Source: an uncultured Bacilli bacterium (GTDB lineage Bacteria; Bacillota_I; Bacilli_A; RF39; UBA660). Taken from it: a stretch of DNA of 64,000 nucleotides. The stretch is from assembly GCA_905235065.1 (NCBI GenBank), contig CAJOJR010000001.1, positions 33,591 through 97,590 of the forward strand. Reading direction: 5' to 3'. The position numbers and the translations under genes are program-made. Below the pieces are notes generated by a model that worked only from the letters and a program-made list of their open reading frames with translations, was not told where the DNA came from and made no database searches. Positions 35,864 to 51,949 of this stretch are shown in pieces (within the stretch, counting starts at the first letter, position 1; each line of letters opens with the position of its first letter).

Positions 35864-36916
35864 TTATTTTAATATCCATGCATTACATACATATCTTTCG
35901 CCAGTATAAGAATATCCTCCGGGATCATTAACTAATTTATTGTTAACAACTAGCATTGAAGATCCTCCCCCATCTAAATTAGCAGCATTATATGCACCAT
36001 ATTGATATAAGAAATCTGCAAGTTGGACCATTGAAAGTCCTGGTGAACCTTTACCTCTTCCATCTCCAACTGCAAATAAAACTATCCCATCTTTTCTTTG
36101 AGCAATAGCAGTTCTAGGAGCATACCCCCAACCACCATCACCTTTCATTTCGGCTTTTTCACCATTCATTATTAAGAAAGGTCCAAATGTCATTGCATCT
36201 CTCATTCCATTTTTTATTGCAGTTTCTGCATCATCGTAAGTAAGTACTAAGACATTATCTTCATTAAACCCTATTAGTTGATTGGTCCCCGGAGAACCAG
36301 AAATTATCTTACCGCTTGAAATAACAGCTCCGTATGGTGTTAAAGCACCAGTTGTTCTATTTCTATTATATCCAGATGCATTAACAGCAGCAATTGCCTC
36401 ATTGTCTCTTGCAATAGCTGTCATTACTTGACCACCTCTCGAAATCTTTTTGGAAAGTACCATTGATATTCTTGAAGGATCATATACTACTAACATATGA
36501 ATAGTATTTCTTTTATATTCAACAGTAAATACTTTGTATAAATCATTTCCTTCATCTCTTTTTAAAACTTGCTCCTCATATTCATTAGCATAGACACCAG
36601 TATCAACATTAGTGTTATTGAATTTAATTGCACTCGTATCTGTTGTATCATCAAATTTCTTAACAACATTAGCTTTCATAGTTTCACTTATAATATAATC
36701 ATTATAAAATATATATGCTAAGTATTGGTGTGTCCTAGTTGTCATTGCAGTAGTAATTAGTAGATTTCTAAAATATGATATTGGTCCATACGTTATAAAA
36801 AAACCTAAAAACACTAATATATCTAAAATAACAACAGTTATCATTAATTTATCTTTTTTCTTTTTTTCCATAAAACTACTCCACCACATATGGTTCTTCT
36901 TTTGAACCCTTACCAC
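35864..36916 (-). CDS. Phosphodiester glycosidase family protein (NAGPA/DUF2233-like) with an N-terminal membrane anchor. The start is probably at the internal MEKKKKDKLMITVV....
   Basis: The C-terminal ...AANLDGGGSSMLVVNNKLVNDPGG... is characteristic of the phosphodiester glycosidase domain. It has one TM. Confidence 0.55.
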   Translation of the reverse strand: MVRVQKKNHMWWSSFMEKKKKDKLMITVVILDILVFLGFFITYGPISYFRNLLITTAMTTRTHQYLAYIFYNDYIISETMKANVVKKFDDTTDTSAIKFNNTNVDTGVYANEYEEQVLKRDEGNDLYKVFTVEYKRNTIHMLVVYDPSRISMVLSKKISRGGQVMTAIARDNEAIAAVNASGYNRNRTTGALTPYGAVISSGKIISGSPGTNQLIGFNEDNVLVLTYDDAETAIKNGMRDAMTFGPFLIMNGEKAEMKGDGGWGYAPRTAIAQRKDGIVLFAVGDGRGKGSPGLSMVQLADFLYQYGAYNAANLDGGGSSMLVVNNKLVNDPGGYSYTGERYVCNAWILK

Positions 36917-38168
36917 TTTTTATAGCCATATTTGAATCCAAATATAATACTGGTCTTATATTTTTATTTTTATTTACTGAATCAGAATATACAGTTTTAT
37001 CTGAAGCTACTGTATACACAACGCTATTTTTAGAATCAGAAGGAGTCAAAGTATATACATTTTCATATTCAAGAAGCCCTAAATCATCAATGTTAAGAAG
37101 TCCAACATTTGCTTCAATACTAGTTTGATAAATAGAATTATAATCATAATCATTATCAGAAGTATATACTCCTACAAACCATTTTCCTTTAACAATCTTT
37201 TCTTTTAATTCGTCTGCAAAACTTTTATAATAATCTCCATTTAAGTATTTATATATATATGAATTTTCGAAAGTATTATATTTTTTATCAAATATATTTT
37301 TATTTTCTAAAATTCCATCTAATACCACCTTGGTTCCTATTTCGTTTTGATCTATTATTTTCCAAACACTATCATTAAAACTTATATATTCATTTATTCC
37401 CTTTTGATTTAAATAATTAGTTCCCGGATTTCCAACTGCATATGGATTTTCAACACTTCCATCTCCATAGCTATATTCCACTTCACTTGATAAAGTGATT
37501 ACCGGTAATATTTCATAATGGTGTGTGACTTTTGTCTTTTTAACTCCGCCAGTATTTGAAACATAATATTGAGATTCTTCGCTCATATTGCTTAGCCAAA
37601 ATTCTCTTTCACTTTTTATAAATCCATCTAGTCCACCAGTAATTTGATAATCGCTTATTGAAGGAATACCTATTAAATATTCTTCTTTCTCATTACATGT
37701 AATATTTTCCATATCTGATACATCATCTAAACATACACTAGTTTTTGATAAATAAATATCTGGGTCTTCAAGATTTCTATATATAATGTTTTCTTCATCA
37801 TTTAAATATTTACTTATAAATGATTCTTTAAATACTGATGAATTCGAAAGAATAGGACCACTATTTAAAGCTATTAATCTAATTTTTCCATCTGACTCTA
37901 TTTTTTCTATTCTCCATAAATTGCCAGAATATTTAACATAGTTTTTATCGTTTTTATAGTTATAAACATATCCATCTTCTAATTGAGATAAATCATTATT
38001 TACATATGAATTTGTTAATACCGTTTTATAAAGTGGCGTATGTTCAACTTCATTCCAATTAGAATTTTTATGATATATGTTATAGTAATGATAAAATCTA
38101 TATCCATAAAATGCTATACAAGCTAATATAAATAATATACTACATATTTTAAAAATCTTTTTTCCCAT
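36876..38168 (-). CDS. Secreted or membrane-anchored hypothetical protein (430 aa) with internally repeated modules.
   Basis: It has an N-terminal TM/signal anchor. Two similar segments (…GNLWRIEKIESDGKIRLIALNSG… and …NDSVWKIIDQNEIGTKVVLDG…) suggest a tandem domain repeat. Confidence 0.4.
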   Translation of the reverse strand: MGKKIFKICSILFILACIAFYGYRFYHYYNIYHKNSNWNEVEHTPLYKTVLTNSYVNNDLSQLEDGYVYNYKNDKNYVKYSGNLWRIEKIESDGKIRLIALNSGPILSNSSVFKESFISKYLNDEENIIYRNLEDPDIYLSKTSVCLDDVSDMENITCNEKEEYLIGIPSISDYQITGGLDGFIKSEREFWLSNMSEESQYYVSNTGGVKKTKVTHHYEILPVITLSSEVEYSYGDGSVENPYAVGNPGTNYLNQKGINEYISFNDSVWKIIDQNEIGTKVVLDGILENKNIFDKKYNTFENSYIYKYLNGDYYKSFADELKEKIVKGKWFVGVYTSDNDYDYNSIYQTSIEANVGLLNIDDLGLLEYENVYTLTPSDSKNSVVYTVASDKTVYSDSVNKNKNIRPVLYLDSNMAIKSGKGSKEEPYVVE

Positions 38169-38270
38169 ACTACAAACCTCTACTCTAAAAAGTATAACAT
38201 TTTAACTAGGTATTAACAAGTTATTTTTTACAAAGTGATTGACAAAATATTTTTAATACCATTATAATAT

Positions 38271-39530
38271 ATGAGTATGAATAAATTAAAAGATAAGAAA
38301 AATTTTTTTTATTTTGCATTAATGATTTTACCAATCATTGATGTTTTAACATCTATAAATGCAAGATTTAATACGTTTCACTTTTCACCGGGAATAATTG
38401 TACGAGGAATTATTTTTCTTATTTCTGTTTTATATATTTTGTTTTCTAAAAATATAAATAAAGAAATGAGAAAAAAGGCTATTATATATTTTGTTATTTT
38501 TTTAATATATTTTTCTATATTTATGTTAGTGAGACTAAATGATTCAATTGACAAGAGCCACTTGATATCTGAAATAAAATTCTTTTTTAAATTTTGGTAC
38601 TTCCCTATTACATTAATATTTTTAAATAATTTAGATTTAGATAAAGAAAAATTAAATAAAGCCCTAAAAGTAAGTACACTATTATATGCGATAGGTATAT
38701 TTTTACCTCTTGTTACAAACACCTATTTTGAATCATATAGTTATTCACCATACAAAGGTGTTGTTGGGTGGTTCTATTCTGCAAATGAACTAGGAAGTTT
38801 ATTATCAATGAATTTAATATTACTTTATTTGAATCTTGATAAAAAGAACATTTTAATAATGTTATTAAATATATTTACATTAGTAATAATAGGAACTAAA
38901 GTTTCATTATTCTCAGTAATTATTATAACTGTATCAATGTTTTTAATCTTTCATCTAACCACTAAAAAGAAATCTAATAAAACTAAAAAACCAAAAAAGG
39001 TAAAATATTCACTCATAATACTAATTATTTCTGTCTTTTTAATATTATTTAGTTCAACCGCAAGAGATGTGTTAGAAAGACTTAATGTAAATAAAAATAA
39101 TATTATAGAAACAAAATTAACTGGATTTGGAGCTGTTCTTGATAAACTATTAAGTGGTAGATATACATTTTTATTAGATACATTAGATCAATATAAAACC
39201 GAAAGTATTGCTGTTAAAACATTTGGCTTAGGTTTTACTTATAACAATCATTTAACAAGCATAGAAATGGATACATTTGACATAATGCTTAGATATGGAA
39301 TACTTGGATTTATAATATATTTTGCTCCACTTATATATTACTTATATGTTTATATTAAAGATAACAAAAAAACAAAACCAATACCTTTCTTAATATGTTC
39401 TATTGGTATTATCCTAGCATTATTAATTGCCACAAGCTGTGGACATATGGTATCAGCACCAACCGCAAGTATATATGTTGCATTATGTGTTGCATTAATG
39501 AGTACTAAATATACAAAAGAAGAAGATTAA
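38271..39530 (+). CDS. O-antigen ligase / Wzy_C-family polytopic membrane protein.
   Basis: It is a 419 aa protein with about 10-12 TM segments, including a large periplasmic-loop-type segment. It is divergent from the upstream genes and convergent with the LCP gene. Confidence 0.45.
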   Translation: MSMNKLKDKKNFFYFALMILPIIDVLTSINARFNTFHFSPGIIVRGIIFLISVLYILFSKNINKEMRKKAIIYFVIFLIYFSIFMLVRLNDSIDKSHLISEIKFFFKFWYFPITLIFLNNLDLDKEKLNKALKVSTLLYAIGIFLPLVTNTYFESYSYSPYKGVVGWFYSANELGSLLSMNLILLYLNLDKKNILIMLLNIFTLVIIGTKVSLFSVIIITVSMFLIFHLTTKKKSNKTKKPKKVKYSLIILIISVFLILFSSTARDVLERLNVNKNNIIETKLTGFGAVLDKLLSGRYTFLLDTLDQYKTESIAVKTFGLGFTYNNHLTSIEMDTFDIMLRYGILGFIIYFAPLIYYLYVYIKDNKKTKPIPFLICSIGIILALLIATSCGHMVSAPTASIYVALCVALMSTKYTKEED

Positions 39531-39531
39531 A

Positions 39532-41004
39532 TTAATCTTCTTCTTTTTCTTCCAATACTTCTTTTATTTTTGCTTTTGCTTCTTCAACTGTTTTTTGATC
39601 TGGAAACATTACAGATAATGATGAATTTGGATACGAATATGTTGGTTCATTACTGCCTGTTCCATTTAGATTAGATGTAATAAATTCCCATCCTCTCATA
39701 TCACTTAATTGAAATTGAACCACAGATGTTATATTATCAGTTGATAAATTTGATTCAAATGTTCCTTCTAAAGCTTTTAAAATTCTATCATAATTTTGAA
39801 TTAAATTTTTAGAAGAAGTTAACTTATCAACAACCAATTGTATTACTTGTTGTTGATTTTCTCCTCTATGTCTATCCCCTGTTTTATACGCATGTCTTTC
39901 TCTAGCAAATGCTAAAGCACATTTACCGTCAACCTTGTTAGCTCCAGGTCTAAATACACAACTTTTATCTGTCCAACATTTAAAACTATAATCAACGTCA
40001 CTATTAATTGTTATACCGCCTATCGCATCAACTAATTTAACTACCGAATTAAAATTTACTCTTGCATAGTAATCTGCTTTATAACCTAATATATCTTCAA
40101 CTGTGGCTTTTGAAAGTTCAAGACCTCCTAATACACCAGCATGTGTAAGTTTATCTCTAAGTCCACTTTTACCATGTAAATGAACATAATAATCTCTAGG
40201 AATATTTACTAACAATATTTTTCTAGTATCAGGATTAACTACAATAAACATATTAACATCACTAAGACTTCTAGAAGGCATTGAATCAGTTCTAGTATCA
40301 ATACCACTTAAATACACTATAAATGGTTGTTTCATTATGTTTGATTCACTAGTAACATTTTCAAGTATTTTTTCAAATTCAATTTCATCTATCTTTTTTA
40401 AGTTGTCTTTATATTTTTCATCATTTTCAATCAATGCATCATAACTTCCAGCATTTATTAATATTATTTTTTCATTATCTTCAAGTAACCCATCAAATAA
40501 GTTATGATAGTCTTCAACTTCTTCCAGAGTTACTTTTAATCTTTTAGTAACTATTTCTTTTAATTTATCAATTTCAGTTATGTCTTCATAATAATATACA
40601 GTTTTATTTTTTATATCTGATTTATTATTATAAACAGAGTTTTTATTGACTACAACATAATAAATATCTTTTGTAGATTTAACATGAATACCATTATTTA
40701 GAAAATCATATGTTTGATATAATTCATAAGTCACATATGACTCCCCAGCAATAAATATAATCGCTAGTATATTTATTATTAAAAGAATACTTTTTTTGAT
40801 TCTTTTATTGATACAAATAATAAAATATATAAACCACAATAATCCTAAAGTTATACTTATTGCATAGAAATATTTACTAGGAAGTACATTTAATTTATAT
40901 ATCATATATAAAAACGCAACTAAAACTAGTAATGCTATAAAACATAGCATTTTACTAAATACTCTTACTTTCTTTTTACTTTTTTCTTTACTCATTTTGG
41001 TCAC
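39532..41004 (-). CDS. LytR-CpsA-Psr (LCP) family glycopolymer-to-peptidoglycan transferase.
   Basis: It has an N-terminal TM, an accessory domain and the LCP core ...IVVNPDTRKILLVNIPRDYYV...LTHAGVLGG.... Length is 490 aa. Confidence 0.75.
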   Translation of the reverse strand: MTKMSKEKSKKKVRVFSKMLCFIALLVLVAFLYMIYKLNVLPSKYFYAISITLGLLWFIYFIICINKRIKKSILLIINILAIIFIAGESYVTYELYQTYDFLNNGIHVKSTKDIYYVVVNKNSVYNNKSDIKNKTVYYYEDITEIDKLKEIVTKRLKVTLEEVEDYHNLFDGLLEDNEKIILINAGSYDALIENDEKYKDNLKKIDEIEFEKILENVTSESNIMKQPFIVYLSGIDTRTDSMPSRSLSDVNMFIVVNPDTRKILLVNIPRDYYVHLHGKSGLRDKLTHAGVLGGLELSKATVEDILGYKADYYARVNFNSVVKLVDAIGGITINSDVDYSFKCWTDKSCVFRPGANKVDGKCALAFARERHAYKTGDRHRGENQQQVIQLVVDKLTSSKNLIQNYDRILKALEGTFESNLSTDNITSVVQFQLSDMRGWEFITSNLNGTGSNEPTYSYPNSSLSVMFPDQKTVEEAKAKIKEVLEEKEED

Positions 41005-41006
41005 CT

Positions 41007-42014
41007 CTATTCAATAGTTACATTCTTTTTTGTAATGTGAACTTCAATATAAGTTCTACCATCACTTACACTAATTTCACTTCCATCTAAGTATGTATAT
41101 TTTGTTTTACTCTTTCTAGATTCTTTACTCCATTTAATTGGAACAGCATATCCATTTGTTATGTAGTATCCATCTCCGGAACCAACCGTTTTTAAATCCC
41201 AATATTTTCCGTCAGGCATTACACTATAATTAATTTTTTGTACAATTACGTTTTTAGTTGTAAATTCTTCTCCACTTGCATGATCTTTAGTTACTTTATT
41301 ATTTACAATTCTAGTATACATTTTACTTTCTTCATTATAGTCAAATACTGTTGTAATATTACCATATGGTAAAGTTATCTTTTTAGCTTCTTTTGCATTT
41401 TCCATATTACTTAAATCAGTATCTTTTGCATTATAATTTAAAAGTATTGTTTTATCACTCTCAAGATTATAACTCTTTTTATTCTTAACATAATCATATA
41501 CTTTATTAGTGTTTAAATATACAGTATGTTCAGTAGCAAGATGCTCTTTATTATCTCTCCACATAGATCCTTCACTTACTATACCTTGGACATAATCAAT
41601 AATATTCTTTTTCATTTCATCTTTTGCATAATGACTCCATCCATAAGATACAAATATTGCATCACTTTCATATGAAAAATCTATAAAATTATGTCTTGCA
41701 CTTCTAATTGTTCCTACATTTATATCTTTTACATCTTTATATAATGCAAGTAATCTTGAAGTAAAACCTTCAGTAGGAATCTCATATATTAAATAAGCTT
41801 TATTAAGACCTTCCTGCACTTTTACTGCAACCGGTGTGTTATTAACCGAGATTGCAAGCGGTCTTGTTTTAGAATTAACATCAATTATATCAACAACATC
41901 TTTTGGTTCTTCTTTCTTAGGAGTTAATTTTTCTTCTGATTTACCACATCCAGTCAATATAATTATAAATACAATTGATAATAAAAATATTTTAACTATT
42001 ATGCTCTTTTTCAT
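41007..42014 (-). CDS. DUF3048 (YerB-like) lipoprotein.
   Basis: It has the lipobox LTGC and is 335 aa, with the two-lobed DUF3048 pattern often found beside LCP genes. Confidence 0.5.
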   Translation of the reverse strand: MKKSIIVKIFLLSIVFIIILTGCGKSEEKLTPKKEEPKDVVDIIDVNSKTRPLAISVNNTPVAVKVQEGLNKAYLIYEIPTEGFTSRLLALYKDVKDINVGTIRSARHNFIDFSYESDAIFVSYGWSHYAKDEMKKNIIDYVQGIVSEGSMWRDNKEHLATEHTVYLNTNKVYDYVKNKKSYNLESDKTILLNYNAKDTDLSNMENAKEAKKITLPYGNITTVFDYNEESKMYTRIVNNKVTKDHASGEEFTTKNVIVQKINYSVMPDGKYWDLKTVGSGDGYYITNGYAVPIKWSKESRKSKTKYTYLDGSEISVSDGRTYIEVHITKKNVTIE

Positions 42015-42549
42015 TTTTTATACCTCTTTTATAACCTAATTTATAAATAAAATAATATGTTCCATAAAATATTATACCACATATACCACCTATACTATCT
42101 ATTAAAACATCCTTTAACTGTCCAGTTCTGCCAACCACAAATATTTGATGATATTCATCTAAACTAGCAAGTGCAATTATCAATAATACTGTTATTATAA
42201 ATGATAACACAAATCTTTTATTTTTAAATATTATATTCGCCATTAAAATAATCAAAAATGATAATACGAAGTATACAAAAGCATGCATAACTTTTCTAAG
42301 GGGTGTATTTAATAAAGCACTCGCTTTTTCTAATTTAACTTCATTAGGATGACTATTAGTTATTCCATATTTATTTGTTATATCTAAGGCATCTTCTATA
42401 AAAACAGTAATAATGTTAGAACTTTTTCCATTGGAGTTTTTATTATTCATTGAACTTAATTTGTATATTCCAAATATCCATAAAATTATTATTAATGATA
42501 AAACTACTATTAAAATTATTCTTTTTTTCATATTTCCTCTATAGTTCAA
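41992..42549 (-). CDS. VanZ family membrane protein.
   Basis: It is polytopic, with the VanZ signature ...SLDEYHQIFVVGRTG.... Confidence 0.65.
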   Translation of the reverse strand: MNYRGNMKKRIILIVVLSLIIILWIFGIYKLSSMNNKNSNGKSSNIITVFIEDALDITNKYGITNSHPNEVKLEKASALLNTPLRKVMHAFVYFVLSFLIILMANIIFKNKRFVLSFIITVLLIIALASLDEYHQIFVVGRTGQLKDVLIDSIGGICGIIFYGTYYFIYKLGYKRGIKNEKEHNS

Positions 42550-42771
42550 TCTCTAAAGTTTTCTTTATAACATCATTCCATATTTTAGAAAATGTATTAA
42601 ATGGCATATTATATATTTATGAACATTTATTCCTTCAATATTTTCAGTATATACATTACCTCCAACACGATCTCTTTTATCAATCACTAATACTTTTTTA
42701 TCCATATTTTTAAGTCTGTTTGCAACTGTTGAACCAAATAAGCCAGATCCTACTATTAAATAATCATACAT
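42550..42771 (-). pseudogene. glf: Remnant of the UDP-galactopyranose mutase (glf) gene: the N-terminal FAD-binding part only, with a frameshift and premature stop.
   Basis: MYDYLIVGSGLFGSTVANRLKNMDKKVLVIDKRDRVGGNVYTENIEGINVHKY matches the Glf N-terminus. The next Glf block (FNTFSKIWNDVIKK, like FHTNNKEVWDYV) continues in a different frame and then stops. A full Glf is about 370 aa. Confidence 0.7.
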
Positions 42772-42783
42772 ATTTTAAACCTC

Positions 42784-44307
42784 CTATAATTTTTTAAATA
42801 TTTTCTTTCTTATTATATCTTTATAAAATATATAATTCTTATCTTTCCTATATACTATAATGAATATAGCAATTGATAGAGTTATTACACTCATAAACTT
42901 CAATATTAACCACAACCAATTATTACACGGAATAAAGTTATTAATAAAAATAATAACTGACGCTATTAAAATGCCGATAATTGTATACTTAAAATACATA
43001 GCAAAGTAATCTTTTAAATTTATAGTTAGTGATTTCTTTGTAATAACATAAGGTTCCCACCAAAAATTAGTTAGCAAGCATGAAATAATAGTCCCTAAAA
43101 CTACTCCTGCTATTCCTAAATATTTAGCCAAAAGTATTGATGTAAATATATTAATAACAGCTTCTATAACTGGAGAATATTTATCTTTATCATAGTTTCC
43201 TGTTGCTTCTCTAAAAGACATACAAGTTCTTCTCATACCAAATAAATAATAGTTAATAGCAATCGTATAAACAGAGATTGTATTTAACAAATATTTTTTT
43301 CCAAGCCATAAACTAATAAAAGGGTTAAATAAGCATATTAAACAAATAGAACTTATTATATGAATCATATAATCAGCAAAGAATGTTTTTTTAAAAATAT
43401 CTGTCATTTTATTTTTGTTTCCATCTACTTGCAAATTTCCTATACTAGCAATAACGGAACTAAATATTTGTGTAACAATATTTTTTAATGCGGTCAAAAT
43501 TAATATATAATTAGAGTATAATCCAACTTGAATTAATCCTAGCACTTTTGAAATAACGATGTTATCAGTTGAATTTAATACTACTCCCCCAAACTTATGA
43601 TAAAACATGGCTTTTACATTAAGGATGATTTCTTTATAATCTTTTTTATTGATTTTCTCCACATTCTTATCCTTTAAAAATGGATACATCTTATCTGCTT
43701 TCCTATTTAATAATATGTTTTCTGCGAGAGTCATCATTATTTGAACTGCTAAAAATAATATATAATTTTTAGTTAATAACAATATTACTATTTGAACAAC
43801 ATTAAGCATAAAAAAGAATGAGTATCTATAAACTGTAGCAATATATCTTTGTTGATCACCTATAATCAATAATCTTTTATGAGAGAATAAGTATGATGCT
43901 GAAGTATTTAATACAAACAATAAATATATTAAGTCTAAATTTGGAATGTTTGGTACTTCATTCATTAATAATTTGTAAAAGGGTAATGCTATTAAACCCA
44001 GTATTGTAATTATTATAGCTATAGATATATATACTTTTTTGTAAAACTGGATTAAGCTTTTTATTTTTTCATTATCATTTTCTGAAATTGGCTTATATAA
44101 TTGATAAGACATTGCCGTAACAAAACCAAGTTCAGTTAAACTTAATATTGTTAATATATTAGTAAATAAGCCACTTAAACCTAAGTATTCAGAAGATAAT
44201 GTTTTAACAAAAACAAGTCTAGAAACTAAGCTAATTAGTATTCCTAAACCTTGTCCAGCCATAGCAAATATTAAATTTCTTATTGAATTATCTGTTCTTG
44301 ATTTCAT
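42784..44307 (-). CDS. Wzx-type polysaccharide flippase (MOP superfamily oligosaccharide flippase).
   Basis: It is 507 aa with about 12-14 TM. The N-terminus ...RNLIFAMAGQGLGILISLVSRLVFVKTLSSEYLGLSGLFTNILTILSLTELG is typical of Wzx/PST proteins. Confidence 0.7.
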   Translation of the reverse strand: MKSRTDNSIRNLIFAMAGQGLGILISLVSRLVFVKTLSSEYLGLSGLFTNILTILSLTELGFVTAMSYQLYKPISENDNEKIKSLIQFYKKVYISIAIIITILGLIALPFYKLLMNEVPNIPNLDLIYLLFVLNTSASYLFSHKRLLIIGDQQRYIATVYRYSFFFMLNVVQIVILLLTKNYILFLAVQIMMTLAENILLNRKADKMYPFLKDKNVEKINKKDYKEIILNVKAMFYHKFGGVVLNSTDNIVISKVLGLIQVGLYSNYILILTALKNIVTQIFSSVIASIGNLQVDGNKNKMTDIFKKTFFADYMIHIISSICLICLFNPFISLWLGKKYLLNTISVYTIAINYYLFGMRRTCMSFREATGNYDKDKYSPVIEAVINIFTSILLAKYLGIAGVVLGTIISCLLTNFWWEPYVITKKSLTINLKDYFAMYFKYTIIGILIASVIIFINNFIPCNNWLWLILKFMSVITLSIAIFIIVYRKDKNYIFYKDIIRKKIFKKL

Positions 44308-45676
44308 TTTTGGTTACCTCAAATTTTTTTATTCTAGTGAATAAGCTTTTTATTTCTTTTGTGTCATGTTCTAAAAAATATAGTAAACAATAAAGCACAA
44401 CAAATTTAAATATAGTATTTATATGAACAAATGTGCTAAATAAATATTCATCTCTAACTTGGTCTATTACCATATATAAATACATCACATAAAATATTAT
44501 TGATAAATTTGTCTTCTTTTTGTTCATAATAATATATAGCAAAGAAAATATAAAACCATTTATAAACTGCAATATCACTACGCCAAGATATCCAAAATCA
44601 TGATAATACCTTTTGGATGAGGTATATATATTACTTTGCATTTTTACATTATTTTTAGTGTAGAAAGATGTCCACTTAGTAGTAATTGGTTGAATATAAT
44701 TAGATAAATGAAGTTTATAAGCAACATTCTGAATCCCTCTAAATGTTTCTTCACCAAAAAGCTTTGGCTTTTCCTCTAGAGAATCTAAGTATTTTTGCAA
44801 AGACGGTATTGGTGCTCCAAAATAAAATGTTGTATATTCTATTATATTAGCTTTTGTATTTCTTCCAAGCAATGGCAAAACCAAATAAAACATAGCAGCC
44901 CCGGATACTAAAAATATAATTAAATATTTCCAATATATTTTTAAAATATTTTTGTATGTGTTTTTCTTATGCGCATGTAAAACACACAAAATTGAAAAGA
45001 ATAAAACATATACTATAACCTGCATCCTACTACCTATTAATAAACTCATTAATATACATATTAATATATTAGAAAAATAAACAATACTATTTTTAGTTTT
45101 AAACAATTCTTTCTTATACATGGAACAGCTTAGTAAGTATATATTCACATAACAAATAACCTCGGACACTTTTTGTAATTGAGCTACAATAAAATTAATA
45201 TGAATACCAGATTTAATATACTCAGTTGAAAACAAAATAGAAGTAGATCTATAAGTTTTAATCATGTTAAAAATACCACCATTATAGCCAACTATTGATG
45301 CTATTCTATGTACCTCAAAAAGTACCAAAATGAAAACCAAAAAGACAAATACTAATTGTATTAAAGATTTCCATAATGGTATATTCTTAATTTCATTTTT
45401 AAAACTTTTTATTTTATAATTTTTATCAAGATATTTTCTACAAACAAATTCACCCATATTAAAAAATAATATAGACACAACAACAATTATGGTAGCTTTT
45501 AACGTTAAAACTTTTACATCATTCCAAAAAAGTAATCCTAAAAAAGCACAAATTAAAGATAATAATATAGAAATATTATATAAAAAAGATGGGGATAAGT
45601 AGTCGTCGTTATATAATTTCAGGTTCAAATAAATCATACCTACTATAAAACATATTAATAATATATATGTATACAT
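44288..45676 (-). CDS. Polytopic membrane protein, putative Wzy-like polysaccharide polymerase.
   Basis: It is 462 aa with about 11 TM plus a large loop. It sits between the flippase gene and the modification genes. No sequence motif was assignable by eye. Confidence 0.35.
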   Translation of the reverse strand: MYTYILLICFIVGMIYLNLKLYNDDYLSPSFLYNISILLSLICAFLGLLFWNDVKVLTLKATIIVVVSILFFNMGEFVCRKYLDKNYKIKSFKNEIKNIPLWKSLIQLVFVFLVFILVLFEVHRIASIVGYNGGIFNMIKTYRSTSILFSTEYIKSGIHINFIVAQLQKVSEVICYVNIYLLSCSMYKKELFKTKNSIVYFSNILICILMSLLIGSRMQVIVYVLFFSILCVLHAHKKNTYKNILKIYWKYLIIFLVSGAAMFYLVLPLLGRNTKANIIEYTTFYFGAPIPSLQKYLDSLEEKPKLFGEETFRGIQNVAYKLHLSNYIQPITTKWTSFYTKNNVKMQSNIYTSSKRYYHDFGYLGVVILQFINGFIFSLLYIIMNKKKTNLSIIFYVMYLYMVIDQVRDEYLFSTFVHINTIFKFVVLYCLLYFLEHDTKEIKSLFTRIKKFEVTKNEIKNR

Positions 45677-45680
45677 TTTA

Positions 45681-47573
45681 TCACTTCCCTATTTTATGAG
45701 AATATGCTTTCTTGTAAATGGAAAAATAAGGCAGTTTTATTTTTAATAATCTTTTCATAAAACCTATCTTCCATCCGGATTCACCAAAATCTTTTTTTAA
45801 CGATTTTAAATGAAAAATATAATATAGAATGCTTTTGGGTGATGCCATTTTTCTATTAAACATATTATCATTAATTATATTACCAAATATAGTGACAAAT
45901 TTGCAAGATGGATTAATAAAACAATTTGTAAATATATTTATGTATTCATAACTATTATCACGGCTAATATAATCAATGTATTTTGAAATATCTCTAATAA
46001 AATCAACTGCGGATCTCTGAATTAATTCTATTGTTGAATCATTTGCGTTAGGTTTCCCTAATACATAATATGGATCCTTATCATTATATTTGATAGTTGT
46101 TCCGTGATGCGAAGAAAACATTTTTTCAAACAAGTCTCTAAATGAGTAGACTCTAAATTGAATGTCATCAATATAATCTTTATTTTTATAGAATAAATAT
46201 CCAATAGAAGTATTATTATTAATTTCTTTATATTTAGAAGAACTATCTATTCCAAAATATAACCCTCCAACTAATTTTTGGGGATATAAGTCATATAGAA
46301 TTGATTGAGTAGTTCCCTTCCAACCCATATCAATCAAATAAAAACTTTTAACATTCAAAGAATCAAAATAATTATTTAAATTGTTATATTCTTTTTTTCC
46401 TAAAAAAGAGATTTTTTCTTTTAAACAATTTTCATATAATTCTATAAATTCTTTGTTTTCTACATAAAAATCTTTATTATACTTTTTTTCAATATCAAAT
46501 GACCTGATATTCTTGATATGTTTTATCACTTCTTCATCTAGTAAATTCAAATTATCAACTAATTCACAAATATTAAGTCTATTATTTGTTATTGAATCTT
46601 TAAAACAAGCATAAGTGTTGTTTTTATATAAATATGGTAATCTTAAACTTCTTCTAGAAACGTAAAAATATTCTGACACATCAATAGTTTTTGGAAATAA
46701 AATATTGTGTATTTCATGTAACATTTTCATATCTCTAGCACAAAATAATAATTTTGAATTTCTATCATGCAATTGACTGTTGATCCAAAGGGAAAAATAT
46801 AAGCAAACGGGACCTAATACTTCATATCCAAATCTATAATAGTAATTACTATTATTTTTATTATTACAAATAGAATATATTAGATTATTATTTAAACTAT
46901 TTAAATCAATATTATTTTTGTTTAAAAACTTGTTCTTATTCGTTGGTTTAATAAGTAAAGTTTTTATTCCAATCAATTTCGGATACAAAAAATCTCCTTT
47001 TTCAGCATCTCCAATATGAAAAACATCCTTTGGATTAAATTTATTTAAAGAAACAAGTTTTTTAAACAATTTACCAGTACTTTTTTTGACTCTATACTCA
47101 CTAGAAACATATATTTCATCGATAAAATATCCACAATTAGATAATAATCTTTTTAATGTTTTAGCATCATAATACATATCAGAAACACAAATAATTCTTT
47201 TTTTGTTTTCAATAGCAAAATCATATATGCATTTCATTTCTTCATTAGCAACACAAAAAATTTCTTCCGCTTGGAGTTCTAATTTTTTTAATAAAACTTT
47301 ATCATACTTGTTATCAAAGCATTCATATATTTCATCAAAAGTAGCTTCTTCTACTTTGTACTTCGCTTTAGCAAGTCTAGAAGCTTCTATTCTCTTTGTT
47401 GTAAAATCAATAATTTTATTTTTAGATATTTCATTATATTTTTTTTCTACATAGGAAAAAATATCTGTAGAAGTTAAACAATTTCTACAAATTAATGTAT
47501 CAAAAATATCAAAAGATATAACATCTCTTTTTAAAATATTTTTTTTGATTCTATTAGAAATACTTTTAATCAT
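45681..47573 (-). CDS. Large (630 aa) protein with an N-terminal HAD-superfamily phosphatase domain and an uncharacterised C-terminal domain of about 400 aa.
   Basis: HAD motif I (FDIFDTLI), motif II (ICVSD), motif III Lys and motif IV (HIGDAEKGD) are present in the first roughly 210 aa. The remainder has no recognisable motif. Confidence 0.5.
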   Translation of the reverse strand: MIKSISNRIKKNILKRDVISFDIFDTLICRNCLTSTDIFSYVEKKYNEISKNKIIDFTTKRIEASRLAKAKYKVEEATFDEIYECFDNKYDKVLLKKLELQAEEIFCVANEEMKCIYDFAIENKKRIICVSDMYYDAKTLKRLLSNCGYFIDEIYVSSEYRVKKSTGKLFKKLVSLNKFNPKDVFHIGDAEKGDFLYPKLIGIKTLLIKPTNKNKFLNKNNIDLNSLNNNLIYSICNNKNNSNYYYRFGYEVLGPVCLYFSLWINSQLHDRNSKLLFCARDMKMLHEIHNILFPKTIDVSEYFYVSRRSLRLPYLYKNNTYACFKDSITNNRLNICELVDNLNLLDEEVIKHIKNIRSFDIEKKYNKDFYVENKEFIELYENCLKEKISFLGKKEYNNLNNYFDSLNVKSFYLIDMGWKGTTQSILYDLYPQKLVGGLYFGIDSSSKYKEINNNTSIGYLFYKNKDYIDDIQFRVYSFRDLFEKMFSSHHGTTIKYNDKDPYYVLGKPNANDSTIELIQRSAVDFIRDISKYIDYISRDNSYEYINIFTNCFINPSCKFVTIFGNIINDNMFNRKMASPKSILYYIFHLKSLKKDFGESGWKIGFMKRLLKIKLPYFSIYKKAYSHKIGK

Positions 47574-47603
47574 CTTACTCCCTCCTAGTGAACATTACAT
47601 TTT

Positions 47604-48401
47604 CTATTTTGAATAATGTTCATTAGTGTTTTTAGGTGTCATATACTCTCCATACATATGAGTTAAATATTCATCATACATTTCAGGACCGGTCAACTTA
47701 ATGTTTTCAAATTTATATTCTGTTGGAGTTCCAAAATATTCTTTTGGTACTATCTCTCTTGTTCTATAGGCCCCCATTATTGTTCCTATATATTTACTTT
47801 TTTCAATCTTTTGTCTCTTTAGCAAATCATCAATGTGTTTAAGTCTTTTTTGAGGATTAATAATTTTTTTGGTAGGCAATATTTTTCCTAAAAATATTAA
47901 TATTTTCTCATATTTTTTTCTTTTTCTTACAGGATCTATTGTATCAATATAATACCAGCTAACAAGCATTCTATTAAATAAAATTCTAAAGTAATATATC
48001 TTTCTTAAAATTATATTATTTGGTGTACCATCAATTGGAAATATATCTATAAATAAATGTGATTTTTCCCCAAGGTGTTCATATCTTTTTTCAACAATTT
48101 CAGTGTTTAGGTCTTCTATTCTTGGCAAATAATACCTATATTTTTTATTGTTATAAAGTGTTGTTAACTTAAACTCTTTTGGAAGTTCTTTATTTGCCAC
48201 TTGTAAGAATTTTTCATAGTCATCCCTCATCATAGCTATATCAACATCATCATCCCAAGGAATAAAGCCTTTGTGTCTTATTGCTCCTAAAAAAGTTCCG
48301 CCAATTATATAATATTTTAAATTATACTTTTGACATATTTTTAAAAATTCTTTTACTAATCTCAAATCAATCTTATGTATTTCCTCTAGGGAATATTTCA
48401 T
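47604..48401 (-). CDS. LicD-family phosphotransferase (CDP-alcohol/phosphocholine-type transferase with nucleotidyltransferase fold).
   Basis: It has ...LKYYIIGGTFLGAIRHKGFIPWDDDVDIAMMRDDY... with the LicD DxD motif. Length is 265 aa. Confidence 0.75.
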   Translation of the reverse strand: MKYSLEEIHKIDLRLVKEFLKICQKYNLKYYIIGGTFLGAIRHKGFIPWDDDVDIAMMRDDYEKFLQVANKELPKEFKLTTLYNNKKYRYYLPRIEDLNTEIVEKRYEHLGEKSHLFIDIFPIDGTPNNIILRKIYYFRILFNRMLVSWYYIDTIDPVRKRKKYEKILIFLGKILPTKKIINPQKRLKHIDDLLKRQKIEKSKYIGTIMGAYRTREIVPKEYFGTPTEYKFENIKLTGPEMYDEYLTHMYGEYMTPKNTNEHYSK

Positions 48402-49015
48402 TTATACTTCACCTCTTTCCAGTTATAGTATTTCTCCAAATATTTCTTATTCTCCTTAGAATCATTAGACCATGGTCCTTTTATAATTGTATTCTTATAT
48501 AAATAGTAATCGGGGACAAATATATCTTTTGCTTTTTCAAAATAATTTAAAACTGCCACTTTAATTTCAGAATTATTAAAATATTTTTCAATTTCCAATT
48601 TGGCTGATAAAACACTATGTCCCGTATCAATTGAATCATCAACTAATAATATCTTCCTACATTTTTTATATTTTTTCCAAATATTTTCATCAAAAGAAAT
48701 ATTTCTATTAGAATTTGAAGAATGAACACTTGAATTCATTTCTTTTTTTCTTAAATATATTTTTAATTTATTAGGAATTAAATTCAAAAGTGGCCTTAAT
48801 ATTTTTTTTAATTTTCCACCACTTCTACTCGCAGTTACTTCAAGTAATGGACAAGTATTAAAATCGGAAAAATCCTTCCCTATCAAATATGATCCCTTAG
48901 CTATAAAAATAACTAAATCATATTTATATTCTTTATTTAATTTACTATATAATTTTTTATCTGTTTCTTTTAAGTCTTTTATTAATAATTCTTGATAATT
49001 CATTCCATTTACCAC
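48398..49015 (-). CDS. Phosphoribosyltransferase (type I PRTase)-like protein.
   Basis: It has the PRPP-binding motif ...KILLVDDSIDTGHSV... and is 205 aa. It is embedded in the glycopolymer operon, overlapping its neighbours. Confidence 0.55.
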   Translation of the reverse strand: MVNGMNYQELLIKDLKETDKKLYSKLNKEYKYDLVIFIAKGSYLIGKDFSDFNTCPLLEVTASRSGGKLKKILRPLLNLIPNKLKIYLRKKEMNSSVHSSNSNRNISFDENIWKKYKKCRKILLVDDSIDTGHSVLSAKLEIEKYFNNSEIKVAVLNYFEKAKDIFVPDYYLYKNTIIKGPWSNDSKENKKYLEKYYNWKEVKYK

Positions 49016-49712
49016 CTTTAATTAGTTTTAATAGTCTAACAACTCTTGTGTTAAAATGAGCAAACTTAATACTTTTTTTCATTTTAAAATTTGATTTATT
49101 AATCATCTCTTTGATATTGTTTTTAGTTACAACTTCAGAAGTAATGCAGTAGTTTCTACCAATTTCATAAAATGTATGGGCATCACTACCAACTACTTTT
49201 ATTAAGTTATATTTATTAGCTATTTGATTTTGCTTAACACTAAATTCTTTTTTTATATTTCTACCATTGTGACACTCAATTAAATCTACATTTTTGTATA
49301 TCCTGTTTAATGCTTCAGGATTAATTACTGTTTTGTATCTTTTTTCATCATATGGATGAGGAATATAAACCACTCCATTTTGACTTTTTATTTGACTCAC
49401 CGTTTCTTCTGCTGATAAATTTGGAAATATTTTATTTTTTAAAAATAGTCCAATTATTTCACCATCTTTTGTAAAAATTTCCTCTCCAACTATTATGTTT
49501 ATGTTATGTTTTTCAAAAAAGTTTTTAAACTTTAGTGCACCTTCGATTTCATTGTGATCTGTAATAGCTATGCAATTAATCTTTTTAAATTTACACATTA
49601 AAAAAAGGAGATATTTTCCAAGAAAACTATCTGCTGAAAACTTGGTATGAACATGAAATTCAATTTTGTACTTTTTCTTAATATCTCTCTTCATAATGCT
49701 ACTTTGCTCCAT
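48957..49712 (-). CDS. PHP-domain metal-dependent phosphoesterase (TrpH/YciV-like).
   Basis: It has the PHP signatures ...EFHVHTKFSADS..., ...AITDHNE..., ...IPHPYD... and ...GSDAHT.... Confidence 0.6.
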   Translation of the reverse strand: MEQSSIMKRDIKKKYKIEFHVHTKFSADSFLGKYLLFLMCKFKKINCIAITDHNEIEGALKFKNFFEKHNINIIVGEEIFTKDGEIIGLFLKNKIFPNLSAEETVSQIKSQNGVVYIPHPYDEKRYKTVINPEALNRIYKNVDLIECHNGRNIKKEFSVKQNQIANKYNLIKVVGSDAHTFYEIGRNYCITSEVVTKNNIKEMINKSNFKMKKSIKFAHFNTRVVRLLKLIKGGKWNELSRIINKRLKRNR

Positions 49713-50388
49713 GTCTCGTAAATATTACTTTCATAGTTTTAAAAATACATAATAAATCTAATTTAAAACCCATGTTTTTTACATAGTAATATTCCAATTC
49801 TAACCTTTTTTTATAGGTAGTTGCACTTCTTCCATTAACAGCCCACCACCCAGTAATTCCTGGTTTAACACTTTCATAAATTTTATGATTGCCTTTATGT
49901 TCATCAAGTTCACCAGGTATTAATGGCCTTGGGCCGATTAAAGAAAGACTGCCAAATAATACATTTATAAATTGAGGCATTTCATCAATTGAACATTTTC
50001 TTAAAATTTTTCCAATTTTAGTTATTCTAGGATCATCATCTAACTTTTGAAATTTTTCCCATTCTTCTCTATATTTCTTTTGCTTTAAAAGTTTTTTTAA
50101 TTCTTCATCAGCATTCCAGCACATACTTCTAAATTTATACATCTTAAAGACTTTACCATTTTTACCAACTCTTTTGTGAGAATAAAAAATAGAATGAAAG
50201 TCACCACTAAAAATATAGAATAATTTAACTATTAAAGATACTGGCACCAAAAAAACAATTCCTATAATAGAAAAAACAATATCAAAAATTCTTTTAATAA
50301 AAAAATAAAAAGCTTTTCTTAATTTTGATAAAGTATTACTTATTACCATAGAAGTTGTTAAACTAACATCATTATTCATACTTAACAC
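49699..50388 (-). CDS. Initiating sugar-phosphate transferase (bacterial sugar transferase family; small WbaP/CpsE-type undecaprenyl-phosphate hexose-1-phosphate transferase).
   Basis: It has one TM plus the conserved C-terminal catalytic domain ...KMYKFRSM...DEMPQFINVLFGSLSLIGPRP.... Length is 229 aa. Confidence 0.75.
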   Translation of the reverse strand: MLSMNNDVSLTTSMVISNTLSKLRKAFYFFIKRIFDIVFSIIGIVFLVPVSLIVKLFYIFSGDFHSIFYSHKRVGKNGKVFKMYKFRSMCWNADEELKKLLKQKKYREEWEKFQKLDDDPRITKIGKILRKCSIDEMPQFINVLFGSLSLIGPRPLIPGELDEHKGNHKIYESVKPGITGWWAVNGRSATTYKKRLELEYYYVKNMGFKLDLLCIFKTMKVIFTRHGAK

Positions 50389-50532
50389 ACCTTTTCTAAC
50401 ACATTTTATAATTTAAATCTTTAAATTTTCATAACTATTATATCATATAATAAAAGCTAAAAACAACAAAACAAAAATGAATTTTACATTTAACACAATA
50501 TTTTAAAATTGATACAACAAAAAAAGAAAATC
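50389..50532 (-). promoter_or_regulatory. Intergenic region upstream of the sugar-transferase gene with a TATAAT -10 element and RBS AAAAGG.
   Basis: The gene-direction sequence ...tatgaTATAATagttatg... lies about 70 nt upstream of the ATG. Confidence 0.3.
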
Positions 50533-50979
50533 TTATTTTTCTTTTTCATTAGGCTCAGGAATCTGATCTATCCCTGATATTGGATTTTGTAATTTCAAAT
50601 CCTCTTTTATTTTTGTTGTTGAAATACCTTCAGTTCTATCTAAATAAACTACTTCACAGTAATCTTTTAAATACTCAAATTTATCACTTCCGGCCCAATC
50701 TCCACCCATAACAACTACATCAACTTGGTATTTTTTCACATCATCAATTTTTTGTTCCCAGCTTTCTTCAGGTATTACCAAATCAACATATCTAACTGCT
50801 TCAAGCATTTTCTTTCTTGTTTCATAATTATGATAAGTTTGCTTTCCTTTTAAATTATTAAATTCTTCCGTTGAGAGAGCAACGATAAGATAATCTCCTA
50901 ACGCTTTTGCTCTTTGCAATAATCTTATATGACCATAATGCAATAAATCAAACGTTCCATAAGTTAGTATTCTTTTCAC
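50533..50979 (-). CDS. tagD: Glycerol-3-phosphate cytidylyltransferase (CDP-glycerol synthase), apparently with a GTG start.
   Basis: It is 148 aa with the cytidylyltransferase HxGH motif (...YGTFDLLHYGHIRLL...) and RTEGISTT. Confidence 0.85.
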   Translation of the reverse strand: MKRILTYGTFDLLHYGHIRLLQRAKALGDYLIVALSTEEFNNLKGKQTYHNYETRKKMLEAVRYVDLVIPEESWEQKIDDVKKYQVDVVVMGGDWAGSDKFEYLKDYCEVVYLDRTEGISTTKIKEDLKLQNPISGIDQIPEPNEKEK

Positions 50980-51348: not shown

Positions 51349-51388
51349 ACAACTTAATTATAACAAATAAAAAGGACTAGTTGTAGTC

Positions 51389-51949
51389 CTAAATAAACTT
51401 AAATACATTATTAACTAATTCTAATGTAAACACTATTGCTAAAGCACCAGTATATTTAACTTGATATCTTCCAAATTCATAAACACTAACAACCTTATCA
51501 GCAAGATTCACAATATGTGATTCTTTATATTGAGGCATTTTATGTGTTACAGGAAACATGTGTGATAGTATAATATCTTTTTCTGTATCATTTATTTCAA
51601 AATATTTAGAGGCATTTTCATAAGCCTTTTCTGGATGAACTTTGAATCTTTTTGCATTTAAATTATCTAATTCATCATTCAAAAAGAAATCATGCATTAA
51701 AGCTCCTCTTGTTGTTGAAATATAATCCAACTTTAAAAACTTGGAAATACCATAACTCATTTTAGCAACTCTATTAATGTGTTCTATTCTTGATGTGCCA
51801 TGGTGATTTTCCTTAGATAATTTTTTGTATTTATTATTTTTTATAAATTCTTTATATATTTTTTTATATTCCATATTACTCACTTCTTGCCATAACAAAA
51901 GCTTAATAATTATATCATGATTTTTATCAAAAGTAAAGTTTATATCCAT
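51389..51949 (-). CDS. HD-domain metal-dependent phosphohydrolase.
   Basis: It has ...HHGTSRIEHINRV... (H...HD-type metal ligands) and ...LMHDFFL.... Length is 186 aa, possibly shorter if it starts at MEYKK.... Confidence 0.6.
   Translation of the reverse strand: MDINFTFDKNHDIIIKLLLWQEVSNMEYKKIYKEFIKNNKYKKLSKENHHGTSRIEHINRVAKMSYGISKFLKLDYISTTRGALMHDFFLNDELDNLNAKRFKVHPEKAYENASKYFEINDTEKDIILSHMFPVTHKMPQYKESHIVNLADKVVSVYEFGRYQVKYTGALAIVFTLELVNNVFKFI

Follow-up and report, generated by a model that had tools for sequence, protein, structure and literature searches.

To our knowledge, no biosynthetic route to the ribofuranose (Ribf) of bacterial glycans was known before 2022. Two routes are described in the literature that we searched, worked out mostly in Gram-negative bacteria. 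In one of them, a glycan phosphoribosyltransferase (gPRT) moves ribose-5-phosphate from phosphoribosyl pyrophosphate (PRPP) to a glycan hydroxyl, and a fused phosphoribose phosphatase (PRP) of the HAD type strips the 5-phosphate (PMC11231755, PMC11294581, PMC10299916, PMC12096443). The role of the loop-I Asp in the PRP phosphatase has been described (PMC11127046, PMC11294581), and enzymes of the PRP-gPRT type were already noted in Wzx/Wzy capsule loci of Streptococcus pneumoniae (PMC11194591). The other route combines a UbiA-type polyprenyl-phosphate phosphoribose synthase (PPPRS), a phosphatase and a GT-C glycosyltransferase (GT); in such three-component systems, the analogous 5-dephosphorylation is carried out by phosphatases from more than one structural family (PMC11127046). 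Here, we describe a cell wall polymer operon of an uncultured Bacilli bacterium, located at 39532-50979 on the minus strand of a 64-kb window (the whole stretch of DNA that was analyzed). This operon encodes a 630-amino-acid (aa) protein related to the PRP-gPRT enzymes, and also a protein with the type-I phosphoribosyltransferase (PRTase) fold next to a PHP-family phosphoesterase. We consider it somewhat more probable than the contrary that the latter two proteins together form a second, non-homologous, two-step PRPP-dependent ribofuranosyltransferase that acts on a lipid-linked glycan within a Wzx/Wzy/LCP operon.

We begin with the 630-aa protein (45681-47573, minus strand), in which Pfam recognized only a HAD domain. 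Its family is large, and the members carry no annotation beyond "HAD family hydrolase" or hypothetical. A phmmer search of the PDB with the single sequence matched 7SHG ("Ribofuranosyl transferase") at 2.4e-19, and the match extended well past the HAD region. When a profile of 24 homologues with 30-55% identity (profile A2) was used, 7SHG was matched at an E value of 6.8e-65 over essentially the full length (profile 8-591, chain 24-628), and Bcs3 of Haemophilus influenzae type b (Hib) was matched at 3e-48 over the CrpP phosphatase and the start of CriT. The domain layout was a PRP domain at about residues 15-215 and a gPRT domain at about residues 235-620, without a transmembrane (TM) segment. 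The motif SFDxFDT (S20, F21, D22, F24, D25 and T26, with D22 as the nucleophile) was invariant in the 24 homologues and aligned with FDIFDT of 7SHG and Bcs3, and DxGWxGxxQ was invariant in the transferase domain. Given the full-length two-domain homology to the 7SHG family and the HAD loop-I Asp nucleophile, the 630-aa protein is, as judged from its sequence, a member of the PRP-gPRT family and hence a glycosyltransferase. It shares the HAD motif SFDxFDT and the gPRT motif DxGWxGxxQ with 7SHG of Thermobacillus composti, ORF5/ORF7 of Klebsiella pneumoniae O4/O7, STM0726 of Salmonella, CrpP-CriT (Bcs3) of Hib and Cj1432 of Campylobacter jejuni; unlike in those systems, its gene sits in a Gram-positive Wzx/Wzy/LCP operon without a Leloir GT. 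Because the PRP domain of this family removes the 5-phosphate, a neutral β-ribofuranose would be expected as the product rather than a pentose-phosphate.

The PRTase-like protein (48398-49015, minus strand) has 205 aa, or 201 aa if the true start is at 49003, as is probable. It matched PF00156 at 1.5e-6, above the cut-off, and is one of a tight family of proteins that are about 200 aa long, with 71 cluster representatives at an E value of ≤1e-30 and 503 at ≤1e-10 in an exhaustive profile search. The PRPP loop ILLVDDSIDTG (VDDSxDxG) is canonical, and D126, D127, S128, D130 and G132 were invariant in the family. The AlphaFold 2 (AF2) model (pLDDT 89.3) had the type-I PRTase fold with its Rossmann-like core; the best Foldseek matches were 6-oxopurine and xanthine-guanine PRTase (XGPRT) enzymes at about 1e-9, with 15-22% identity, and the best 50 matches were all nucleotide PRTases or PyrR. 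The protein is thus placed in the type-I PRTase superfamily by its loop, its Pfam match and its core. Like the 6-oxopurine and xanthine-guanine enzymes (4TRB, 1VDM, 1A95), it has the KG pyrophosphate loop, the PRPP loop (VDDxxDTG) and an Asp at the position of the catalytic base of hypoxanthine-guanine PRTase (HGPRT), and its family keeps these features. Unlike them, it carries an invariant C-terminal GPWSxDS motif, it is encoded exclusively in a polysaccharide-locus context with fusions to glycan enzymes (see below), and the usual site of the flexible catalytic loop is occupied by a helical insert of 43 aa that is rich in Lys and Arg (11 K/R versus 1 D/E). No TM segment was found. Two other identities were tried and rejected. 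A cryptic gPRT/CriT homologue was dismissed since a profile of the PRTase family (profile A1) retrieved only purine PRTases from the PDB, with no match to 7SHG or Bcs3. A purine-salvage HGXPRT/XGPRT was dismissed on the basis of the polysaccharide context, the fusions and a score of only 17.6 bits, against a cut-off of 150, for TIGR01203 (HGPRTase).

The neighboring PHP protein (251 aa; 48957-49712, minus strand) matched PF02811 at 2.4e-9 as well as PF13263. It displays the metal-ligand pattern of the PHP fold (HxH...D...H...E...H...DxH...H), and the ligands H20, H22, D28, H53, E78, H119, D177, H179 and H219 were conserved in at least 44 of 45 relatives and were invariant in the profile A3. 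The structures nearest to its AF2 model (pLDDT 92.1) were TM0559 (7e-13), RNase AM, BAD_1165 and the 3',5'-nucleotide bisphosphate phosphatase Cv1693, and its active site is intact and nearest to those of ribose-phosphate phosphatases. We propose that the PHP protein is the ribose-5-phosphate phosphatase partner of the PRTase. A CpsB/YwqE-type tyrosine phosphatase was rejected as an identity because there was no match to PF19567, 3QY6 was found only at rank 39 with an E value of 1.2e-3, and one related locus (L002) has a separate CpsB.

To see in what company the PRTase is encoded, one genome per species was scanned with motifs of the PRTase family as the seed. The scan gave 60 loci, 58 of which were non-redundant, and these were annotated by using the window proteins as phmmer queries against their open reading frames (ORFs). 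The carriers were gut Bacilli represented by metagenome-assembled genomes (MAGs), Lachnospiraceae, Clostridium, Bacillus, Rossellomorea, Salinibacillus, Veillonella, Megasphaera, Anaeroglobus and Synergistaceae. A phosphatase-type neighbor of the PRTase was present in 55 of the 58 loci. A PHP gene lay directly upstream in 45 loci, and the two genes overlapped in 42. Ten loci without PHP had instead a neighbor homologous to the 630-aa protein of the window; in five of these ten, it was a stand-alone HAD protein of 234-259 aa that matched the PRP domain only. Since the partner is PHP in 45 loci and a PRP-type HAD in 10, the phosphatase has been replaced by a non-homologous one. As for the three loci without such a neighbor, one had a truncated PRTase gene, one was at a contig end, and the third was L053. 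A phosphoglycosyltransferase (PGT) gene was found within 4.5 kb upstream in 36 of the 58 loci, and a LicD gene directly downstream of the PRTase in 13. Fusions were also found: PHP-PRTase (P0275 and P0279, 37-43% identical to the window PHP), PRP-type HAD-PRTase (P0309, 30% identical to the window PRP domain and carrying FDVFDTL), PRTase-GT2 (five loci plus P0242 and P0310) and PRTase-LicD (P0320). Two further fusions were of other kinds, one (P0298) joining an N-terminal membrane CDP-alcohol phosphatidyltransferase to a PRTase-like domain and the other (P0382) joining a PRTase fragment to a class-I methyltransferase.

The closest relative of the window operon was L006, with a PRTase 79% identical and an identical arrangement of 11 genes, and the next closest were loci labeled as Bacilli or "Tenericutes" MAGs. 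In all other respects, the related loci were typical polysaccharide loci of the Wzx/Wzy type, in which genes for GT2, GT4, EpsG and pyruvyl-transferase were found. One other locus without GT-A/GT-B was found in a Bacilli MAG (L007, 8029-16094), with the order PGT, TagD, PHP, PRTase, LicD, Stealth (a hexose-1-phosphate transferase), an unknown membrane protein, Wzx and ATP-grasp; here, Stealth stands in place of the gPRT, and this locus is the one that is really phosphodiester rich. In a Veillonella parvula MAG (L037, 3994-19221), the PHP-PRTase-LicD trio lay inside a Wzx/Wzy/Wza locus that also held genes for a TagF-like glycerophosphotransferase, TarI/TarJ-like CDP-ribitol synthesis, an aminotransferase and a cytidylyltransferase fused to a GFO/IDH/MocA oxidoreductase.

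The PRTase is accompanied by a PHP or PRP phosphatase and is fused to glycan-building enzymes, and we therefore favor the view that the PHP and PRTase pair is a second ribofuranosyltransferase. Like the PRP-gPRT enzymes, the pair would use PRPP, transfer ribose-5-phosphate and then remove the 5-phosphate; unlike them, it is built from a compact type-I PRTase of 200 aa and a phosphatase with the PHP rather than the HAD fold, with no homology in sequence. With the three-component pentofuranose systems and the mycobacterial decaprenyl-phosphate phosphoribose synthase (DPPRS)/Rv3807c pair, it would share the PRPP donor and a phosphatase that may be separate or fused and whose fold varies (PMC11127046). 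In those systems, however, integral UbiA enzymes load polyprenyl phosphate and need a flippase and a GT-C enzyme, whereas the window PRTase is soluble and a GT-C or GtrA partner is not conserved. The broader claim that follows has, in our estimate, only a little better than an even chance of being right: PHP (or a PRP-type HAD) with a compact type-I PRTase would be a third, unrecognized class of PRPP-dependent ribofuranosyltransferase, widespread in polysaccharide loci of Firmicutes (Bacilli, Clostridia and Negativicutes) and Synergistaceae and usually acting straight after the PGT. The polymer of the window would then be made without a Leloir GT, by two PRPP-dependent ribosylations and a LicD-dependent glycerophosphorylation.

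Several points weigh against this reading. All type-I PRTases known to us use nitrogen nucleophiles, and we know of no demonstration of an oxygen nucleophile for this fold outside the divergent gPRT/CriT core. Nevertheless, the catalytic core of CriT resembles nucleotide PRTases according to the Hib structure paper, so two-step ribofuranosyl chemistry is plausible for the type-I fold. The counts given above came from a motif-seeded scan of loci that share ancestry and are not independent of each other. In three loci (L046, L052 and L059), the PRTase stands beside a full PRP-gPRT protein, and in L054 (3753-5790) it stands beside a gPRT-only protein of 438 aa without HAD; this arrangement could point instead to the PRTase as an accessory of gPRT enzymes. 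All four are from a Lachnospiraceae branch, in which PRTase and gPRT may share one phosphatase or cooperate. The functions given to the PRTase-like and PHP families are deduced by comparison, with glycan structures of the carrier organisms (such as Veillonella) absent from the literature searched; which donor LicD uses and which sugar the PGT transfers are assumptions. Finally, a survey by Kelly et al. in 2022 that used PRP as a marker reportedly contained "outliers," only one group of which is said to have been explained since, and the PHP/PRTase family may already be among them.

Other explanations of the pair were weighed against the same data. PRTase and PHP could make a lipid donor, by transferring ribose-5-phosphate from PRPP to undecaprenyl phosphate (Und-P) and dephosphorylating it to Und-P-Ribf, which, once flipped, would serve a GT-C-like enzyme outside the cell, such as the ligase-like protein at 38271-39530. 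The pair would then be a soluble analogue of UbiA-type PPPRS/DPPRS. The three-component logic is known, with phosphatase folds that vary (PMC11127046), and the strongly basic insert of the PRTase would suit a polyprenyl phosphate or a membrane surface. The tight linkage to the PGT, another user of Und-P, the polytopic ligase-like gene that abuts the operon, and the fusion to a membrane CDP-alcohol phosphotransferase in P0298 are also in its favor. We nonetheless think this explanation unlikely: no GT-C or GtrA-like partner was found in the five loci annotated with Pfam (L002, L004, L005, L031 and L037), the PRTase is fused to soluble GT2 and LicD domains acting on cytoplasmic lipid-linked glycans, and it has no TM segment while the known polyprenyl-phosphate PRTases are all integral UbiA proteins. 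The GT2 fusions, which suggest consecutive action on the same acceptor, also speak against a soluble product, namely, a ribosylated small molecule or unusual riboside made by the PRTase and its phosphatase for use by LicD or GT2; most loci (L002, L004, L031 and others) lack a gPRT, LicD or cytidylyltransferase to use such a precursor. As a variant of this idea, the PRTase could be an accessory or regulatory PRPP-binding subunit of gPRT enzymes, as its pairing with PRP-gPRT or gPRT-only proteins in the four Lachnospiraceae loci might suggest, but its invariant catalytic residues speak against a role in regulation alone. Small soluble nucleophiles are the usual acceptors of type-I PRTases, and the relatives of PHP act on nucleotides; even so, we regard the soluble-precursor and accessory versions together as rather improbable.

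Two further explanations fared worse. The model of an earlier note on this DNA had no glycosyltransferase at all: a sugar-1-phosphate primer would be decorated by phosphodiester chemistry only (glycerol-phosphate and a retained pentose-phosphate), with the phosphoesterases in trimming or housekeeping roles. The absence of a GT-A/GT-B domain, the presence of TagD and LicD, and the additional Stealth hexose-1-phosphate transferase in L007 are in line with it. However, the homology of the 630-aa protein to ribofuranosyltransferases characterized in structure and biochemistry spans its full length, its phosphatase nucleophile is intact, and the match of profile A2 to 7SHG largely refutes the model; for the PRTase as well, the phosphatase partnership in 55 of 58 loci and the fusions lead one to expect 5-phosphate removal. 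We consider this model very improbable. Hardly any weight is left for a reading in which the PRTase gene is a common one of the purine-salvage or PyrR-like kind, PHP is a CpsB-like, capsule-regulating tyrosine phosphatase, and their place in the operon is incidental. The best structural matches of the PRTase are indeed 6-oxopurine PRTases, and PHP-family CpsB phosphatases are classic in capsule loci. Yet identity to the purine enzymes is 15-22%, the 43-aa insert replaces the catalytic flexible loop, linkage to polysaccharide loci is strict, and fusions to GT2, LicD and PRP occur. On the PHP side, the structural match to CpsB/YwqE is poor (about 1e-3, versus 7e-13 for TM0559), the Clostridium baratii locus L002 already holds a separate CpsB, and the window operon has no Wzz/CpsD kinase.

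With the PHP and PRTase pair taken as a ribofuranosyltransferase, a pathway can be proposed for the operon. By homology, TagD would make CDP-glycerol and the small PGT would prime Und-P with a sugar-1-phosphate to give Und-PP-hexose, the sugar being assumed. The PRTase would then move ribose-5-phosphate from PRPP onto the Und-PP-linked sugar and PHP would remove the 5-phosphate, as comparative genomics indicates; the position of the pair straight after the PGT, both here and in 36 of the 58 loci, is the reason for suggesting that it adds the second residue. The basic insert, together with the adjacency to the PGT, also suggests the Und-PP-linked primer sugar as the acceptor of the PRTase. Because tagD is in the operon, LicD is taken to be a CDP-glycerol:glycan glycerophosphotransferase, which would add glycerol-phosphate from CDP-glycerol. 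PRP-gPRT would add a second Ribf, again by transfer of ribose-5-phosphate from PRPP and dephosphorylation by the HAD domain; the glycerol may be its acceptor, as ribitol is for CriT. Wzx would flip the unit, Wzy would polymerize it, and LCP would link the polymer to peptidoglycan. If gene order is read as colinear with assembly, the unit would be Ribf-Gro-P-Ribf-Hex-PP-Und, in which the order of the steps and the linkages are speculative. The predicted repeat contains one hexose, two ribofuranoses and one glycerol-phosphate, in a teichoic-acid-like polymer that would be polymerized by Wzx/Wzy and anchored by LCP. In this model, all elongation steps of the wall polymer use non-Leloir donors, and a TagF/TarL polymerase is not needed. 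Like the Wzy-dependent teichoic-acid-like polymers, such as pneumococcal teichoic acid and the decorations of the enterococcal polysaccharide antigen (EPA) of Enterococcus faecalis (PMC7188991), it would involve PGT-primed assembly on Und-P, LicD with a CDP-donor, Wzx/Wzy and LCP; unlike those pathways, which use several GT-A/GT-B enzymes, the window has only PRPP-dependent enzymes for adding sugars after the primer. Compared with the earlier note, which had considered a pentose-phosphate possible, the involvement of a pentose is kept, whereas the phosphate is not, a neutral ribofuranose being predicted after removal of the 5-phosphate. The HAD and PHP proteins, seen there as loose accessory phosphoesterases, are read here as dedicated 5-phosphate-removing partners of two phosphoribosyl transferases. 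In place of a phosphodiester-rich repeat, we predict a repeat of about four residues that carries a single phosphodiester (Gro-P) and is polymerized glycosidically by Wzy.

No description of a PHP/type-I-PRTase ribosylation route was found in the literature searched, which did not take in Kelly et al. 2022. As far as that literature goes, the PHP/PRTase module would be a variant of PRPP-dependent ribofuranosylation that has not been described. The 630-aa protein adds a new member to a known family, and a wall-polymer pathway without a Leloir GT, as encoded in this operon, is rare. If the proposal is true, Ribf could be predicted in hundreds of uncharacterized capsule, exopolysaccharide and wall-polymer loci of gut Firmicutes, Veillonella and clostridia, now annotated only as "phosphoribosyltransferase" and "PHP domain protein." The two-step logic would have evolved at least three times, with swappable phosphatases, and the pair would offer a compact two-protein tool for glyco-engineering with PRPP as a cheap metabolic donor. 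The operon also offers a clean, minimal system for tests: the five enzymes are soluble, and after priming no step depends on an NDP-sugar.

The gene map was based on the ORF listing and on Pfam and NCBIfam scans of the whole window. The region from tagD to LCP is a single operon of 11 genes (about 11.5 kb), and all coordinates below are on the minus strand. The first gene, tagD (50533-50979), encodes a glycerol-3-phosphate cytidylyltransferase that forms CDP-glycerol (TIGR01518 equivalog, 7.4e-55, 184 bits versus a cut-off of 165; PF01467, 2.6e-26) and has no TM segment. It is followed by the gene for a small monotopic polyprenyl-phosphate sugar-1-phosphate transferase, the initiating PGT (49699-50388; PF02397 Bac_transf, 2.5e-60), which matched WbaP/EPS sugar transferases in their C-terminal catalytic part at 7e-76. 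The PGT has a single hydrophobic segment at residues 36-54, and the five assembly enzymes were all called soluble and without TM segments. After PHP and PRTase comes a LicD-family phosphotransferase (47604-48401), matched over its full length by PF04991 at 2e-51. Downstream of the PRP-gPRT gene lie those for a 462-aa Wzy-type repeat-unit polymerase (44288-45676; TIGR04370, 9.2e-34, 117 bits versus a cut-off of 40; a weak match to O-ag_pol_Wzy; about 10 TM-like segments) and for a Wzx-like flippase of the MOP type (42784-44307; about 12 TM-like segments). The Wzx matches were below the curated cut-offs (PF01943, 8.3e-6, just under; NF041503, 4.5e-9), and this weak assignment is based on topology and context; orthologues were found in related loci. 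The combination of PGT, Wzx, Wzy and LCP that defines the Wzx/Wzy-dependent pathway is present in the operon, with Wzx as the weak call. The remaining genes encode two accessory proteins, namely, a VanZ-family membrane protein (41992-42549; PF04892, 3e-15; NF037970, 2e-23), which recurs in related loci, and a DUF3048 lipoprotein with an LTGC lipobox (41007-42014; PF11258 and PF17479), and finally the CpsA-like LCP ligase that joins glycopolymer to peptidoglycan (39532-41004; PF03816, 8.6e-37; NF051849 CpsA, 3.5e-89, under the equivalog cut-off; three N-terminal TM-like segments). The DUF3048 gene was found directly beside PGT/PHP genes in L006, L014, L019 and L026 and recurred also in L045, which points to a conserved accessory function outside the cell for polymers of this class. 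Overlaps were found between PHP and PRTase (47-59 nucleotides [nt]), PRTase and LicD (4 nt), Wzy and Wzx (20 nt), and VanZ and DUF3048 (23 nt). A terminator-like hairpin with a 15-pair stem marks the end of the operon (39515-39547), and another one, belonging to an upstream HD-domain gene (51373-51390), is followed by a 390-bp promoter region before tagD. A promoter scan of this 25% GC DNA gave fewer matches than scans of shuffled sequences.

All gene calls of the earlier note were reproduced by the ORF listing and the Pfam/NCBIfam scans; its view of a cell wall glycopolymer operon was borne out by the domain matches and the overlapping or abutting genes, and we agree that TagD (TIGR01518 above the cut-off) and LicD (PF04991) point to glycerol-phosphate. 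Its statement that no GT-A or GT-B enzyme is encoded holds, but a glycosyltransferase is present. Pfam scanning of 61 ORFs across the 64 kb, including the flank at 35.8-39.5 kb, revealed no GT2, GT4 or other GT-A/GT-B domain and no TagF (Glyphos_transf), but the C-terminal 400 aa or so of the "HAD" protein are a gPRT glycosyltransferase (7SHG, Bcs3). The note had itself named this C-terminal domain as a place where a conventional GT might emerge, and in spirit one did, although the fold is not a conventional GT-A/GT-B fold. No GT emerged from the two other proteins that it had named: the 462-aa membrane protein is Wzy, and the 430-aa secreted protein is an N-terminally anchored extracellular DUF6273 protein without a GT-like match in Pfam, NCBIfam or PDB sequences. 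Similarly, NCBIfam and PDB sequence searches gave nothing GT-like for the NAGPA and ligase-like proteins of the flank. The components of a TagF/TarL-type pathway (a Glyphos_transf polymerase and a TagGH transporter) were absent from all scanned window ORFs, and no TagF/TarL polymerase was found in the syntenic locus L006.

The ORF for the O-antigen-ligase-like protein (38271-39530; PF13425; about 10 TM-like segments) abuts the operon and is convergent with the LCP gene. A perfect sigma-70 consensus (TTGACA-18-TATAAT, 12/12) was found at 38239-38271 on the plus strand, ending 2 nt upstream of the ATG of this ORF; this position points to a leaderless transcript or to a true start codon deeper within the ORF. 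Just past the operon (35864-38168, minus strand), two N-terminally anchored extracellular proteins are encoded, a NAGPA "phosphodiester glycosidase" (PF09992, 8e-41) and the DUF6273 protein. NAGPA homologues were also found near the PRTase loci L021 (1719-2843) and L045 (4528-5610), and the polymer's sugar-1-phosphate diesters may be trimmed by proteins of this type. Elsewhere, the window consists of housekeeping DNA from a spore-forming Firmicute with 25% GC, including spoIIGA, sigE, sigG, ftsK, ezrA, genes for penicillin-binding proteins, rseP and cdsA. It also contains an ORF for a DnaE-type DNA polymerase III alpha subunit (54667-57129, minus strand) of only 820 aa, which is short for the family.

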